Below, in pieces: positions 877-7,714 of a stretch of 19,489 nt of DNA. Under the pieces are notes generated by a model that did not search any database, was not told the DNA's origin, and was given only the letters and a program-made list of their open reading frames with translations. Source of the stretch: a virus (taxonomy: Duplodnaviria > Heunggongvirae > Uroviricota > Caudoviricetes); IMG/VR virus record IMGVR_UViG_2609459850_000001; one strand, given 5' to 3'. How positions within the stretch are numbered: position 1 is the stretch's first letter; the number at the start of each line of letters is the position of its first letter. A program made the position numbers and the translations under genes.

Positions 877-912
877 TCACCATAACTGCTAACCATTCTG
901 ACCATTTCACAA

Positions 913-941
913 GTGACAGAGTCAATATCGTATTCTGTCAC
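913..941. repeat. perfect 8-bp inverted repeat GTGACAGA-N13-TCTGTCAC downstream of the YbcW-like ORF
   Basis: Read directly from the sequence. No T-run follows, so it is not a classic intrinsic terminator; it could be an operator or RNA hairpin. Confidence 0.4.
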
Positions 942-1237
942 TGTCAGGCTAATACAGCAATGCAATTCAACTACAGCAATGCCTCGTATTTAGGTGAATT
1001 TACAATATCGTCCAGTTCGGATGCCGGCTGCATTTCTGAAGATAAGGCATTTCGGTTCTCGTATTTTCCCCTCATGCTCGTCAGTCCTGCGCGTAGTAAG
1101 AAACAGGACACTCACACTAATTTGTGTGGGCATGCTGTGATGTCCTTCTGAATTATCCCCATGCCATTATGTAAAGCTCTGTTACAGATGCTCGTCACGG
1201 TTGTCAGGCTGTCGGGTCCTCCCAGTGGGGGGCCCTG

Positions 1238-1260
1238 CCACGGGGCGGGAGCGTCGCGGA
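1238..1260 (+). other. candidate cos site (cosN-like), CACG-GGGCGGGAGCGT-CGCGG
   Basis: Lies about 185 bp upstream of the terS start, the same spacing as lambda cosN to Nu1. The flanks resemble lambda cosN (GGGCGGCGACCT followed by CGCGGG) as I recall it, with a different central core. Confidence 0.35.
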
Positions 1261-1298
1261 AAAAGGCTAGTTTTTGAAATTTCATCCGTCATCACCAC

Positions 1299-1324
1299 TA
1301 CTGTAATAGATTGATATTACAGTA
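1299..1324. promoter_or_regulatory. perfect 10-bp inverted repeat TACTGTAATA-N6-TATTACAGTA in the cosB-equivalent region; candidate TerS or host-factor binding site
   Basis: Read directly from the sequence. Sits between the candidate cosN and terS, where lambda carries its R sites and IHF site. Confidence 0.3.
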
Positions 1325-1428
1325 TTTTTATTTTTGTGGTGTCGATTTTGATTGTTTTTTGTTCATCACTAACACCGTTTGCCTAAAGTCGTTCGCAAGA
1401 TGCATGTTTAAAACATTCTGGAGCGGGT

Positions 1429-1923
1429 ATGGATCGAGAGTTAAAAAATCTGACGCTGAATATCAGTCAATTGGCGGCACTGTCAGGTGTACATCGCCAG
1501 ACTGCTGCGGCAAGGCTGCAAAATCTACCCGTTGCAGGGGGGCATGAAAGCAACCTCAAGCTTTATCGGGTGGTTGATATTGTGTCGGCATTTCTGGCAT
1601 TACCACCGCCGGTTGCAGAAGGCGAAATGGACGCACATGAGCGCAAAGCCTGGTATCAGTCTGAACGTGAGCGTCTTAAGTTCGAACAGGAAACGGCACA
1701 ACTCATTCCGGCCAGTGATGTCAGACGGGAGTTTGCCATCTGGGCAAAAGCGGTCGTGCAGGTGCTGGAGACATTACCGGATATTCTTGAACGTGACTGC
1801 GGTCTGCAGCCTGCCGCTGTGAGCCGTGTTCAGTCCATTATTGATGATCTGCGCGATCAGATAGCCCTGCGGGTGACTGAAGCAGGTGCGGATGATGAGG
1901 AGGAATTACAGCAGGAGGAGTAA
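1429..1923 (+). CDS. terminase small subunit (Nu1/NohA family)
   Basis: 164-aa ORF with GGAG upstream; its stop overlaps the terL start (TAATG). N-terminal HTH-like segment followed by a G..G..LY motif, resembling lambda Nu1 architecture and E. coli NohA-type proteins. Position immediately 5' of terL. Confidence 0.8.
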   Translation: MDRELKNLTLNISQLAALSGVHRQTAAARLQNLPVAGGHESNLKLYRVVDIVSAFLALPPPVAEGEMDAHERKAWYQSERERLKFEQETAQLIPASDVRREFAIWAKAVVQVLETLPDILERDCGLQPAAVSRVQSIIDDLRDQIALRVTEAGADDEEELQQEE

Positions 1924-4025
1924 TGCTGAATCAGGAAACCGCAAAGGCAGCACGAACCGATTCAGGTTATATCCTTCGCGCACCGAGACGAATGCGGGTT
2001 GCTGATGCCGTTGCTCAGTATATGCGGGTGCCCATGGGGGCAGGGAACTCAGTCCCGTGGGATCCGCTGGTGGCACCGTATGTTATTGAGCCTATGAACT
2101 GCCTGGCCTCGCGTGAATACGACGCAGTGATATTTGTTGGCCCGGCACGAACCGGCAAGACTATCGGCCTGATTGACGGCTGGGTGATTTACAACGTGAT
2201 TTGCGATCCTGCTGATATGCTGATCATTCAGATGACGGAGGAAAAAGCCCGCGAACACTCCAAAAAACGACTCGCCAGAACGTTTCGCGTCAGCCCGGAA
2301 GTGGTCAGTCGCCTGAGTCCGAACAAAAATGACAACAACGTTTATGACAGAACATTCCTTGCTGGCAACTACCTGAAAATCGGCTGGCCGTCAGTCAATA
2401 TCATGTCTTCATCAGATTATAAATGCGTGGCGCTGACGGATTATGACCGTTTTCCGGAAGATATTGATGGTGAGGGGGATGCCTTCTCTCTTGCCTCAAA
2501 ACGTACCACCACATTTATGTCCAGTGGTATGACGCTGGTGGAGAGTTCCCCCGGCAGGGATGTGAAGGATGTGAAATGGCGACGGACTTCACCGCATGAG
2601 GCTCCACCAACCACGGGGATCCTGTCGCTCTATAACCGTGGCGATCGCCGTCGCTGGTACTGGCCCTGTCCACACTGTGGTGAGTATTTTCAGCCCTGCG
2701 GCGATGTGGTTGCTGGTTTCCGTGATATTGCCGATCCTGTGCTGGCAAGTGAGGCGGCTTATATTCAGTGTCCTTCCTGTTCAGGACGGATTTTGCCTGA
2801 ACAAAAACGCGAGCTGAACGGACGTGGGGTCTGGTTACGGGATGGTGAATCCATCAATGCAGATGGCAGTCGTTATGGTGATCCCCGGCGTTCACGTATT
2901 GCGTCATTCTGGATGGAGGGTCCGGCAGCTGCTTATCAGACACTCTCGCAACTCGTTTACAAACTGCTTACTGCAGAACAGGAATACGAGACAACCGGAA
3001 GTGAAGAGACACTCAAGACGGTTATCAATACCGACTGGGGATTACCTTATCTTCCCCGCGCCAGCATGGAGCAACGAAAAAGTGAATTGCTTGAGCAGCG
3101 GGCAGAGCCAGTTCCTTCCCGCAGTGTGCCGGATGGCGTTAATTTCCTTGTGGCGACAGTGGATGTGCAGGCGGGACGTCATCGCCGTTTTGTGGTTCAG
3201 GTAACGGGCTATGGCAGCCGTGGCGAACGCTGGATTATTGATCGTTACAACATCACGCAGTCATTGCGCGGTGACAGCGACGGGGAGAGCCAGCGAATTG
3301 ATCCGGCCAGCTATCCGGAAGACTGGGATGTCCTGCTGACGGATGTTTTTCATAAAAGCTGGCCGCTGGCCTCCGACCCTTCTCAACAAATGCGACTGAT
3401 GGCAATGGCGGTGGACTCCGGCGGTGAAGACGGGGTCACTGATAATGCCTATAAATTCTGGCGTCGTTGCCGTCGTGATGGCCTTGGTAAACGTATTTAC
3501 CTGTTTAAGGGCGACAGCATCCGGCGAGCAAAACTGATCACCCGTACATTCCCTGATAACACCGGACGAACGGGCCGACGGGCGCAGGCCGCAGGTGATG
3601 TGCCGCTCTGGCTTCTTCAGACGGATGCCCTGAAAGACCGGGTGAATAACGCGTTATGGCGTGACTCGCCAGGTCCCGGCTATGTGCATTTCCCTGACTG
3701 GCTGGGGAGCTGGTTTTACGACGAACTGACGTATGAAGAGCGGAGCAGTGACGGGAAATGGAGTAAGCCGGGTCGCGGTGCCAACGAAGCTTTTGACCTG
3801 ATGGTGTATGCCGAGGCTCTGGTCATTCTGCATGGATACGAAAAGATCCGCTGGCCGGATGCACCGGAGTGGGCGAGCCGGGAAACCTGGCTGGAGTGTG
3901 TCCCGGACAGTACCGAACCGTCACCCTCACCGGAACCGGTACCCACGCCTGTTAAAAAACAAAAACGGAAGAAAACATTAACTGACGATGTTAACCCCTG
4001 GCTGACTTCCGGAGGATGGTTATGA
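1923..4025 (+). CDS. terminase large subunit (gpA family)
   Basis: 700-aa ORF with a Walker A-like GPARTGKT near the N-terminus and a CPHCG...CPSC zinc-ribbon-like segment, as in lambda gpA. Position between terS and portal. Confidence 0.9.
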   Translation: MLNQETAKAARTDSGYILRAPRRMRVADAVAQYMRVPMGAGNSVPWDPLVAPYVIEPMNCLASREYDAVIFVGPARTGKTIGLIDGWVIYNVICDPADMLIIQMTEEKAREHSKKRLARTFRVSPEVVSRLSPNKNDNNVYDRTFLAGNYLKIGWPSVNIMSSSDYKCVALTDYDRFPEDIDGEGDAFSLASKRTTTFMSSGMTLVESSPGRDVKDVKWRRTSPHEAPPTTGILSLYNRGDRRRWYWPCPHCGEYFQPCGDVVAGFRDIADPVLASEAAYIQCPSCSGRILPEQKRELNGRGVWLRDGESINADGSRYGDPRRSRIASFWMEGPAAAYQTLSQLVYKLLTAEQEYETTGSEETLKTVINTDWGLPYLPRASMEQRKSELLEQRAEPVPSRSVPDGVNFLVATVDVQAGRHRRFVVQVTGYGSRGERWIIDRYNITQSLRGDSDGESQRIDPASYPEDWDVLLTDVFHKSWPLASDPSQQMRLMAMAVDSGGEDGVTDNAYKFWRRCRRDGLGKRIYLFKGDSIRRAKLITRTFPDNTGRTGRRAQAAGDVPLWLLQTDALKDRVNNALWRDSPGPGYVHFPDWLGSWFYDELTYEERSSDGKWSKPGRGANEAFDLMVYAEALVILHGYEKIRWPDAPEWASRETWLECVPDSTEPSPSPEPVPTPVKKQKRKKTLTDDVNPWLTSGGWL

Positions 4026-4234: not shown

Positions 4235-5742
4235 TGGCAATTCTTGATGATGTGATTGGCGTTTTTTCACCAGGATGGAAAGCGGCAAGGCTGCGTTCCC
4301 GTGCGGTGATCCAGGCTTATGAGGCCGTAAAAACGACGCGGACACACAAAGCCCGACGGGAGAACCGAACTGCCGACCAGTTAAGCCAGTACGGGGCCGT
4401 GTCGTTACGTGAGCAGGCTCGTTACCTTGATAACAACCACGATCTGGTCATTGGTGTATTTGACAAGCTGGAAGAACGGGTGGTGGGGAAAAACGGGATT
4501 ATTGTCGAGCCACATCCGGTATTACGCAATGGGGCCATTGCCCGTGATCTGGCAGCGGAGATACGTACCCGATGGAGTGAATGGTCTGTCAGTCCGGAGG
4601 TCACCGGGCAGTTTACCCGTCCGATGCTGGAACGTCTGATGCTGCGTACCTGGCTGCGCGATGGTGAGGTGTTTGCCCAGATGGTTTCCGGGCGCATAAA
4701 CAGCCTGACGCCTTCTGCCGGTGTTCATTTCTGGCTGGAGGCGCTCGAGCCGGACTTTATTCCCATGACCAGTGATGAGAGCAACAGGCTGAATCAGGGC
4801 GTGTTTGTTGATGACTGGGGGCGTCCCGAAAAATATCTGGTGTATAAAAGCCGTCCCGTATCCGGGCGGCAGATGGAAACCAAAGAAGTGGATGCAGAGC
4901 GAATGCTGCATCTTAAATTTGTTCGCCGTCTGCACCAGATGCGCGGGACGTCTTTGTTGTCCGGTGTGCTGATCCGCCTCAGTGCTCTGAAAGAGTATGA
5001 AGATTCTGAGCTGACTGCAGCAAGGATCGCCGCTGCTCTGGGGATGTACATCCGGAAAGGCGACGGACAGAGCTATGAAACGGATGGTAATGACAGCAAG
5101 GAGAATGAACGCGAGCTTACCATTCAGCCAGGCATTATTTACGACGATCTGAAACCCGGCGAAGAAATCGGAATGGTGAAGTCGGATCGCCCCAATCCTA
5201 ACCTTGAAACTTTTCGTAATGGTCAGTTGCGTGCCGTGGCTGCGGGCAGTCGTCTGAGTTTTTCCAGTACAGCGCGCAACTATAACGGCACTTACAGCGC
5301 CCAGCGTCAGGAGCTGGTTGAATCTACTGATGGCTACCTGATCCTGCAGGACTGGTTTATTGGTGCCGTCACCCGCCCGATGTACCGTGCCTGGCTGAAA
5401 CAGGCTGTGGTATCCGGTGTTATCAGGCTACCCCGCGATCTGGACCGATCTTCACTGTATACCGCGGTGTATTCCGGACCGGTGATGCCGTGGATTGACC
5501 CTGTTAAGGAGGCTGAGGCCTGGAAAATTCAGATTCGTGGTGGAGCGGCGACAGAATCAGACTGGGTACGTGCAGGTGGTCGTAATCCTGATGATGTCAA
5601 ACGTCGGCGCAAGGCCGAAATTGATGAAAACCGCAAGCTGGATCTGGTATTTGATACCGATCCGGCCAGTGATAAAGGAGGCAGCAGTGCCGCAACGAAA
5701 CGACAGGAGCCGCAGCACACCGACGACCAGTCCGAAGAATAA
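4234..5742 (+). CDS. portal protein (gpB-like)
   Basis: 502 aa from the ATG at 4234, which overlaps the W stop (TGATG). The track's 4162 start is a GTG inside W. Size and position are typical for a lambdoid portal. Confidence 0.85.
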   Translation: MAILDDVIGVFSPGWKAARLRSRAVIQAYEAVKTTRTHKARRENRTADQLSQYGAVSLREQARYLDNNHDLVIGVFDKLEERVVGKNGIIVEPHPVLRNGAIARDLAAEIRTRWSEWSVSPEVTGQFTRPMLERLMLRTWLRDGEVFAQMVSGRINSLTPSAGVHFWLEALEPDFIPMTSDESNRLNQGVFVDDWGRPEKYLVYKSRPVSGRQMETKEVDAERMLHLKFVRRLHQMRGTSLLSGVLIRLSALKEYEDSELTAARIAAALGMYIRKGDGQSYETDGNDSKENERELTIQPGIIYDDLKPGEEIGMVKSDRPNPNLETFRNGQLRAVAAGSRLSFSSTARNYNGTYSAQRQELVESTDGYLILQDWFIGAVTRPMYRAWLKQAVVSGVIRLPRDLDRSSLYTAVYSGPVMPWIDPVKEAEAWKIQIRGGAATESDWVRAGGRNPDDVKRRRKAEIDENRKLDLVFDTDPASDKGGSSAATKRQEPQHTDDQSEE

Positions 5743-5755
5743 TTCCTGGTTCAGG

Positions 5756-7714
5756 ATGCAGGCAGGTCACCAGAGTGACGCGGATATTTATATTTATGAC
5801 GAGATTGGTTTCTGGGGTGTTACGGCGAAGCAGTTTATCAGTGATCTGAATGCACTGGGCGATATCACCCACATTAATCTCCATATTAATTCACCGGGTG
5901 GCGATGTCTTTGAAGGCATCGCCATTTTTAATGCACTGAAAACACATGGTGCGTCCATTACCGTTTATGTCGACGGTGTGGCGGCGTCAATGGCGTCGGT
6001 CATTGCGATGGTGGGAAACCCGGTCATTATGCCGGAAAACTCCTTCATGATGATTCATAAACCATTTGGCTTTACGGGCGGTGATGCGGAGGACATGCGC
6101 ACCTATGCCGACCTGCTCGATAAAGTTGAGGCGGTTCTGTTACCCGCTTATGCACAGAAAACCGGGAAAACCACCGATGAAATTGCTGCCATGCTGGCGG
6201 ATGAGACCTGGATGTCCGGTGCCGAATGTCTGGCACAGGGATTTGCTGATCAGGTGACACCAGCCGTTAAGGCAATGGCATGTATTCAGTCAAAACGTAC
6301 AGAGGAATTTAAAAAGATGCCGGAATCCATTCGAAATATGATTACTCCGCCACGCAACAGTGCTCCACGCGTACAGGATGATGGACCTGCAGCCTCCCGG
6401 ACGCCAGTGCAGGCAGCAGCACCCGTGGTGGATGAAAACAGCATCCGTGCGCAGGTCCTGGCAGAGCAAAAAGCGCGTGTAAACGGTATTAATGCTCTGT
6501 TTGCCATGTTTGGCGGGCGTTATCAGTCGTTGCAGGCTCAGTGTCTTGCCGATCCTGAATGTTCGCTGGAGCAGGCCCGCGAAAAGCTGTTGAACGAGAT
6601 GGGGCGCGAGTCCACGCCATCCAATAAAAATACCCCGGCTCATATTTATGCCGGTAACGGTAATTTTGTGGGGGACGGGATCCGCCAGGCGCTGATGGCG
6701 CGCGCCGGGTTTGAAAAAACTGAACGTGATAATGTCTACAACGGGATGACCCTGCGTGAATATGCCCGTATGTCACTGACTGAACGTGGTATTGGTGTTT
6801 CCAGTTATAACCCGATGCAGATGGTCGGTGCGGCGTTCACACACAGTACGTCTGACTTCGGTAATATTCTGCTGGATGTTGCGAACAAAGCCATTCTGCA
6901 GGGCTGGGAAGATGCCCCTGAAACCTATGAACAGTGGACGCGGAAAGGTCAGTTGTCTGATTTTAAAATTGCCCATCGTGTGGGTATGGGGGGCTTCAGT
7001 GCTCTGCGTCAGGTGCGTGAAGGGGCAGAATATAAATACGTCACCACCGGAGATAAACAGGCCACTATTGCACTGGCGACCTATGGCGAGCTGTTCAGTA
7101 TCACCCGTCAGGCCATTATCAATGATGATCTGAATATGCTGACCGATGTCCCGATGAAGCTGGGCCGTGCGGCGAAATCCACTATTGCCGATCTGGTTTA
7201 TGCCATTCTGACGTCTAACCCGAAAATCTCCACAGATAATGTAAGTCTGTTCGATAAAGCGAAACATGCAAACGTACTGGAGAGCGCGGCAATGGACGTG
7301 GCATCGCTGGATAAAGCCCGCCAGTTGATGCGCGTTCAGAAAGAGGGTGAGCGTCATCTGAATATTCGTCCTGCGTTCGTACTGGTACCGACGGCGATGG
7401 AGTCTGTTGCTAACCAGGTCATTCGCTCCTCAAGTGTCAAGGGGGCTGACATTAACGCCGGTATTATTAACCCGGTGAAAGATTTTGCGACCGTTATTGC
7501 AGAGCCTCGTCTTGATGATAACAGCCAGACCACCTTCTACCTGGCTGCGTCCAAAGGCTCCGATACGATTGAAGTGGCTTATCTCAACGGTGTGGATACG
7601 CCATATATTGATCAGATGGAGGGCTTCAGTGTGGATGGCGTGACAACGAAAGTGCGTATTGACGCTGGTGTTGCGCCAGTTGATCACCGCGGCCTGGTGA
7701 AATGTACGGCGTAA
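5756..7714 (+). CDS. fused prohead protease (ClpP/S49-like) - scaffold - major capsid protein (tripartite capsid gene)
   Basis: N-terminal segment IYIYDEIGFWG...INSPGGDVFEGIAIFNALK...VDGVAASMASVIAM...MMIHKPF is protease-like. The middle is Ala/Gln/Glu-rich, and the C-terminal roughly 250 aa is capsid-like. The start is taken as the first ATG after the portal stop; the track's 5495 is a TTG inside portal. The start is uncertain (weak RBS). Confidence 0.75.
   Translation: MQAGHQSDADIYIYDEIGFWGVTAKQFISDLNALGDITHINLHINSPGGDVFEGIAIFNALKTHGASITVYVDGVAASMASVIAMVGNPVIMPENSFMMIHKPFGFTGGDAEDMRTYADLLDKVEAVLLPAYAQKTGKTTDEIAAMLADETWMSGAECLAQGFADQVTPAVKAMACIQSKRTEEFKKMPESIRNMITPPRNSAPRVQDDGPAASRTPVQAAAPVVDENSIRAQVLAEQKARVNGINALFAMFGGRYQSLQAQCLADPECSLEQAREKLLNEMGRESTPSNKNTPAHIYAGNGNFVGDGIRQALMARAGFEKTERDNVYNGMTLREYARMSLTERGIGVSSYNPMQMVGAAFTHSTSDFGNILLDVANKAILQGWEDAPETYEQWTRKGQLSDFKIAHRVGMGGFSALRQVREGAEYKYVTTGDKQATIALATYGELFSITRQAIINDDLNMLTDVPMKLGRAAKSTIADLVYAILTSNPKISTDNVSLFDKAKHANVLESAAMDVASLDKARQLMRVQKEGERHLNIRPAFVLVPTAMESVANQVIRSSSVKGADINAGIINPVKDFATVIAEPRLDDNSQTTFYLAASKGSDTIEVAYLNGVDTPYIDQMEGFSVDGVTTKVRIDAGVAPVDHRGLVKCTA

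Follow-up and report, generated by a model that had tools for sequence, protein, structure and literature searches.

In lambda-like phages the cosQ element is highly conserved (PMC4669245), and a cosB segment with the order R3-I1-R2-R1 has been described for lambda, 21, phi80, Gifsy-1 and Monarch (PMC4669245, PMC9026076). In lambda itself, R3 occupies bp 50–65 (PMC9026076), a static-bend segment named I2 covers bp 18–50, and I1 covers bp 65–90 (PMC4856287). I1 is the IHF site of lambda cosB, an assignment for which PMC4669245, PMC4856287 and PMC9026076 cite Xin and Feiss 1993. According to the lambda model, the bend made by IHF juxtaposes R3 and R2 and thereby governs the placement of terminase (PMC4669245, PMC4856287, PMC9026076). 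Both the IHF consensus and the part that the A-tract plays in clamping the bend into a U-turn have been described (bioRxiv 10.1101/382655). Gifsy-1, Fels-1, phages of the VT1-Sakai type and cdtI belong to a group with lambda-like cohesive ends, following the grouping of Casjens 2008 in the form in which PMC4669245 cites it.

The DNA examined here, a stretch of 19,489 nucleotides referred to below as the window, represents the late region of a lambdoid prophage of E. coli. An earlier note on this DNA had drawn attention to a perfect 10-bp inverted repeat between the candidate cos and terS, in the place where lambda has its R sites and IHF site. This placement is correct: cosN lies at 1243–1254, the terS ATG at 1429, and the repeat between them is part of the cosB of a lambda-like cos. 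Sequence comparison makes it very probable that the inverted repeat sits within an I1-type IHF site of cosB, in a lambda-like E. coli prophage of the mEp460/phi458/cdtI/Gifsy-Fels cos group. The dyad symmetry itself is most likely incidental and not a functional feature. The elements of the region, in window coordinates, are the following.

1213–1220, plus strand: cosQ-like sequence CGGGTCCT, identical to the sequence near the lambda right end and 22 nt upstream of the cohesive end (23 nt in lambda).
1243–1254, plus strand: cosN cohesive-end sequence GGGCGGGAGCGT, with an inferred 12-nt 5' overhang; 8 of the 12 bases are those of lambda GGGCGGCGACCT.
1260–1285, plus strand: A5/T5 tracts between cosN and R3, resembling I2; AAAAAGGCTAGTTTTTG is invariant across the cosB types with this cosN.
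1287–1298, plus strand: candidate TerS site R3, CGTCATCACCAC, with the TCATCAC repeat, at +45 to +56.
1299–1324, without strand: the inverted repeat itself, with perfect 10-bp arms and a 6-nt spacer, which falls within the stretch corresponding to the 35-bp H' IHF footprint.
1304–1316, minus strand: core of the predicted IHF site, TATCAATCTATTA, with 0 mismatches to the consensus WATCAANNNNTTR.
1325–1335, minus strand: A-tract half of the predicted IHF site, reading TTTTTATTTTT on the plus strand and AAAAATAAAAA on the consensus strand; nearly invariant.
1337–1347, minus strand: candidate TerS site R2, inverted, GTGGTGTCGAT (reverse complement ATCGACACCAC).
1361–1376, plus strand: candidate TerS site R1, GTTCATCACTAACACC, a TCATCAC direct repeat of R3 in the same orientation as R3, as in lambda.
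1429–1923, plus strand: terS, small terminase subunit (DUF1441, phrog_141), whose first 45 residues vary strictly with the cosB type.
1923–4025, plus strand: terL, gpA-type large terminase subunit (Pfam GpA_ATPase, 1.7e-71; GpA_nuclease, 1.1e-85).

Downstream of terL come a fusion of ClpP protease and capsid, then tail genes of the lambda kind and the start of J. In the 739-aa ORF at 5495–7714 a ClpP-type protease domain is fused to a phage capsid domain. Lambda, in contrast, has separate C, Nu3 and E genes, the protease/capsid fusion being typical of this prophage group. The stretch from 1200 to 1450 is widespread, being present in 2109 of 5426 complete E. coli genomes (~39%), and 12 of the matches listed are 100% identical to it. 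Its nearest isolated phages are vB_EcoS-569R4, mEp460 and phi458.

Reading from left to right, the order of the elements is cosQ, cosN, R3, IHF core, inverted R2, R1 and terS, and the terS ATG stands at +187 from the first cohesive-end base (+191 for lambda Nu1). The record of phage cdtI (AB285204) begins exactly at the first base of GGGCGGGAGCGT, which is position 1243, and this cohesive-end sequence recurs without change in more than 120 IMG/VR prophage contigs. The deposited ends of related phages lie off the inferred cohesive end. The mEp460 record (JQ182728) ends at the equivalent of window 1403 and that of mEp460_4F5 (LR595868) starts at the equivalent of window 1238, so that among these records cdtI alone starts at 1243. 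A 57-aa ORF on the minus strand (1112–1285; phrog_35283, designated "hypothetical protein" in several phage records) spans both cosQ and cosN. It is probably a spurious call, because cos cleavage would cut the ORF in virion DNA. Just to the right of cosN, the segment AAAAAGGCTAGTTTTTG at 1260–1276 is the same in all cosB types that share the cosN, and by analogy it may be the equivalent of lambda I2.

The candidate R sites of the window were not reported by an automatic repeat search of the window (seed 6), and they were recovered solely by k-mer listing and comparison with relatives. TCATCAC occurs as a direct repeat at 1289 (R3) and 1363 (R1). The reverse complement of the putative R2, ATCGACACCAC, matches R3 (TCATCACCAC) at 8 of 10 bases, and R2 is the weakest of the three R-site assignments. 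The same R3/R2/R1 pattern is unambiguous in Fels-1 (ATCATCATC, GATGATGAT and TCATCATCTT), and in the lambda control the same tools recovered R3 at 53–65, inverted R2 at 108–120 and R1 at 155–166. The inverted repeat lies 57–82 bp to the right of the cohesive-end sequence, between the candidate R3 and the inverted candidate R2. Taken as a whole, the region has the composition of a complex cosB of the lambda type, namely cosN and cosQ, three related repeats of which R2 is inverted (with modest support for R2), an IHF core between R3 and R2, and a TerL of the gpA type.

The two arms of the repeat, TACTGTAATA at 1299–1308 and TATTACAGTA at 1315–1324, enclose the spacer GATTGA and are 100% complementary, as had been described, and on the minus strand the whole repeat reads TACTGTAATATCAATCTATTACAGTA. 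The earlier note also held the repeat to be improbable by chance, and our shuffles agree. Among 2000 dinucleotide-preserving shuffles of the 174-bp cosN–terS interval (1255–1428), 0.7% contained a perfect inverted repeat whose arms measured 10 bp or more and whose loop did not exceed 40 nt (P ~0.007). No more than three perfect 10-bp inverted repeats with this spacing occur in the whole window.

The sequence TATCAATCTATTA is the sole perfect match to WATCAANNNNTTR on either strand of the whole 19.5-kb window, for which 0.44 matches are expected; the expectation for the cosN–terS interval is ~0.004. On the consensus strand the order is AAAAATAAAAA, 9 nt and ATCAA, with the offset seen in H' of lambda attP, and when lambda attP was scanned with the same script H' was recovered in the same register as AAAAAA-GCATTGCTT-ATCAA-TTTG-TTG. 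Alignment in register with the 35-bp H' oligonucleotide puts the expected IHF contacts at 1300–1334, and the inverted repeat as a whole falls in this region. The predicted site has the marks of the H' class, that is, the consensus, an A-tract about one turn 5' of the consensus, and constraint on the consensus but not on its N positions. As in H' (co-crystal 1IHF), the match to WATCAANNNNTTR is perfect and the A-tract is exactly 9 nt from ATCAA. The two differ in that H' is a recombination site whereas the present site belongs to a packaging signal, and in the A-tract, which is A6 in H' and an interrupted A5-T-A5 here. T-tracts at 1325–1329, 1331–1335, 1346–1349 and 1355–1360 are phased at ~10 bp, and this phasing suggests an intrinsic bend beside the IHF core, such as PMC4856287 reports for lambda I1.

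The likeness to lambda I1 extends to the surroundings. Both sites lie between a direct R3 and an inverted R2, to the right of a 12-nt cohesive end of the lambda kind; in both, the minus strand carries the consensus, the A/T-tract faces terS and a gpA-type TerL is encoded downstream. The distances are similar, with the core at +62 to +74 here and at ~+74 to +91 in lambda. In lambda cosB, too, the best IHF matches fall between R3 and R2 on the minus strand; they have 1–2 mismatches, whereas the match here, with 0 mismatches, is much better. Other differences concern the R sites, which are unrelated (TCATCAC-type here and CGTTTCC-type in lambda), TerS, which is a DUF1441 protein here, without detectable sequence similarity to Nu1, and the perfect 10-bp dyad, which is present in the lineage of the window and absent from lambda.

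Scanning IMG/VR for the cosN sequence and adding the phage matches yielded 123 loci with this cosN. Rightward of +33 these loci split into at least four mutually unalignable cosB types, which were designated A (the window, mEp460 and phi458), B (PhiR47_1), C (cdtI) and D (locus L038). In all 123 loci, across types A to D, the cos–terS interval has its best IHF match at +62 or +64, on the minus strand, with 0–1 mismatch. By eye, the IHF core is likewise placed in Fels-1 (AAACAATGAGTTA), VT1-Sakai and 1720a-02, whose cosN is slightly different. The dyad at the IHF core occurs in type A only; the other types reach no more than 4–8 bp of perfect local inverted repeat, and this at other places. Gifsy-1, Fels-1, VT1-Sakai and cdtI thus resemble the window in having the same or a near-identical cosN, a homologous DUF1441 TerS (41–88% identity), the order R3-IHF-R2-R1 and an IHF core at the same offset, and differ from it in their R-site sequences, in their TerS N-termini and in having no dyad around the IHF core. 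Fels-1 (locus L007, 1086–1105) has an 8-bp A/T-rich inverted repeat, ATCTTTTA/TAAAAGAT, between the IHF core and R2, and VT1-Sakai (locus L009) has one of the same length and kind, TTTTTAAT/ATTAAAAA, in the same interval at cos +73. Short A/T palindromes seem to be frequent in this part of cosB.

Each cosB type is strictly tied to its own TerS N-terminus (~120 loci), while cosN is identical, as expected for a TerS-cosB specificity module. Within type A the N-terminal 45 residues of TerS are essentially invariant, with one L8M substitution (locus L084). Between the TerS of the window and that of PhiR47_1 (locus L002, 1831–2322), the C-terminal two-thirds are identical and the N-terminal ~60 residues differ. 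This pattern, read from the sequences, indicates that cosB and the TerS N-terminus have been exchanged as a unit, in a modular exchange of packaging specificity.

A second scan of viral contigs enlarged type A to 121 loci with 67 unique sequences, among which the variation is unevenly distributed. Mean entropy is 0.02 for the WATCAA bases and 0.04 for the TTR bases, and the central N positions 1308 and 1309 have entropies of 1.6 and 1.4. The outer halves of the left and right arms have mean entropies of 0.39 and 0.47. For the T-run the mean is 0.18, or 0.06 after its first base, and for the candidate sites R3 and R2 it is 0.07 and 0.12. Constraint therefore tracks the asymmetric IHF consensus and not the dyad. 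The dyad of the type-A consensus is just 8 bp long (ACTGTAAT-N8-ATTACAGT). The earlier note had named the absence of the element from otherwise identical cos regions as a ground for refutation, and in near-identical cos regions the variants go partly in that direction: the perfect 10-bp form is kept in 8 of the 67 unique variants and missing from most, the outermost and innermost pairs being broken in the majority. The perfect dyad is specific to one lineage and subject to drift, and its bases belong to those portions of the IHF footprint that are non-specific.

Several other explanations of the repeat have to be weighed against an I1-type IHF site. The earlier note had regarded it as a candidate recognition element, for the HTH of TerS or for a regulator. 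A recognition element is still what we favour, in the form of an IHF site, while the conservation pattern disfavours a TerS HTH site or the operator of a regulator. That the dyad serves as operator for a dimeric protein with sequence specificity, whether the TerS HTH or a phage or host regulator, is accordingly very unlikely in our estimate, even though a perfect 10-bp dyad is improbable by chance and type A has an 8-bp core of the dyad as its consensus. Pairing that slightly exceeds the shuffles (91.2% observed and 90.1% in shuffles, an excess reached by 2 of 500) also speaks for an operator, but conservation is asymmetric and runs along the IHF consensus, and the perfect dyad, with its outermost and innermost pairs mostly broken, is confined to the few variants counted above. 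Dyad pairs changed on both sides number only 2, which 108 of 500 shuffles equalled, and the covariation score, reached by 1 of 500 shuffles, is marginal and, like the pairing excess, within the false-positive range of the test for related sequences. The symmetric arm conservation or compensatory change by which a symmetric operator would be recognized was not found among the 67 unique type-A variants. Moreover, the arms drift while the type-A TerS N-termini stay identical, they are unrelated to the repeated TCATCAC motifs that flank them, and other cosB types with related TerS proteins have no dyad at this place. The arms do look like LexA half-sites: their outer 7 nt (TACTGTA and TACAGTA) equal the consensus half-sites of the LexA box TACTGTATATATATACAGTA. 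However, CTGT at 1301–1304 and ACAG at 1319–1322 are 14 nt apart, and CTGT-N14-ACAG is incompatible with the CTGT-N8-ACAG of LexA, since a LexA dimer would not span half-sites set 6 bp further apart. A LexA box was ruled out on this spacing, as the earlier note had already judged. The IHF model leaves the improbability of the dyad (P = 0.007) and its 8-bp type-A core unexplained beyond the consensus bases. On account of that improbability and of the slight pairing excess, we grant a very small probability to a dyad of 8–10 bp that is itself functional on the IHF site in the mEp460/phi458-type lineage. It would then act either as a second, symmetric site for a dimeric factor that competes or cooperates with IHF, or as a cruciform or hairpin which, once extruded, would tune the initiation of packaging or the expression of terS.

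It is very unlikely that the repeat acts in the late transcript across cos as an RNA hairpin followed by U5AU5, whether as a weak intrinsic terminator or as a stability element, and so restrains unmodified polymerase from reading through into terS. The hairpin alone folds at -10.4 kcal/mol and is followed directly by UUUUUAUUUUU, and the stretch 1285–1345 folds at -18.8 kcal/mol (z = -5.5). The strong fold is, however, explained by the nested R3/R2 inverted repeat, in which CACCAC of R3 pairs with GTGGTG at 1337–1342, a feature at the DNA level that lambda has as well. Only 2 of the 10 stem pairs are G-C, the terminator scan gave no flag, and most type-A variants have GG or GA between the stem and the U-run. 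The T-run is conserved also in the cosB types that lack the hairpin, which fits the A-tract of an IHF site. In the first data set, G.U-type variants prevailed over A.C-type variants (41 cells vs 3), in favour of a transcribed hairpin. The larger set is balanced, its distinct substitutions comprising 4 to G.U on the plus strand, 5 to A.C and 10 pair-breaking transversions. A plus-strand RNA hairpin argued from variant bias was thus rejected when the 41 vs 3 asymmetry vanished in the enlarged set (4 vs 5). An intrinsic terminator was also ruled out, given the weak stem, the scan without a flag and the lack of a hairpin in other cosB types, and promoter prediction found no promoter within the repeat. 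It is also highly improbable that dyad and IHF match are both functionless, an AT-rich spacer between TerS sites with coincidental features such as a quasi-palindrome sharpened by template switching. IHF is merely accessory for lambda packaging (PMC4669245), AT-rich DNA fits WATCAANNNNTTR more readily than average DNA, and the dyad drifts freely, all of which would suit a mere spacer. Against this, every cosB type examined has a core with 0–1 mismatch in the same place and on the same strand despite unalignable surroundings, and the consensus bases are nearly invariant beside hypervariable N positions.

An I1-type IHF site at this place would work as in lambda. IHF would recognise TATCAA-TCTA-TTA on the minus strand (1304–1316), clamp the A-tract at 1325–1335 and, occupying 1300–1334, bend the DNA sharply. 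The bend would set the oppositely oriented R3 (1287–1298) and R2 (1337–1347) face to face, so that a TerS dimer could dock, and the docked TerS would anchor the gpA-type TerL to nick cosN (1243–1254), ~45–55 bp to the left. Whereas the sequence match, placement, orientation, conservation between cosB types and substitution pattern of the IHF site are observed, the binding of IHF, the bending and the docking of TerS at this cosB are taken over from the lambda literature. The docking of TerS across the bend is the weakest step, an analogy.

Similarity between TerS and lambda Nu1 was not found by BLASTP, nor was a relevant match found among PDB sequences. With hhalign, TerS residues 9–59 were aligned to Nu1 residues 2–54 at a weak probability of only 9–10%. 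In an alignment-based AlphaFold model the N-terminus of TerS is arranged as strand-helix-helix-wing-helix (pLDDT 77–85), and the best Foldseek matches of the model are sub-threshold, to winged-HTH proteins of the MerR type and to 6hn7, a structure from a study of how PICIs redirect the packaging of helper phages. The weak profile alignment and these weak fold hints would be compatible with a Nu1-like winged HTH in the TerS N-terminus.

The element is very probably of an ordinary and already understood kind, an uncharacterised example of the well-known I1-type IHF site. Its importance hardly goes beyond annotation, in that coordinates for cosQ, cosN, R3, I1, R2 and R1 become available for a widespread E. 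coli cos region which is usually unannotated or overlaid by a spurious ORF. The family-wide variants amount to a natural mutagenesis of an IHF site, in which the consensus is fixed and the N positions are free. The linkage of cosB to the TerS N-terminus may help to predict packaging specificity among lambdoid prophages, as well as possible cross-packaging or satellite hijacking among them.

Two further inverted repeats were observed upstream of the cos region. After the lysis genes, a perfect 9-bp inverted repeat, AGTGACAGA-N13-TCTGTCACT, lies at window 912–942. At 432–458 there is a hairpin resembling a bidirectional terminator, AAACCTCG...CGGGGTTT, which is followed by a T-run.
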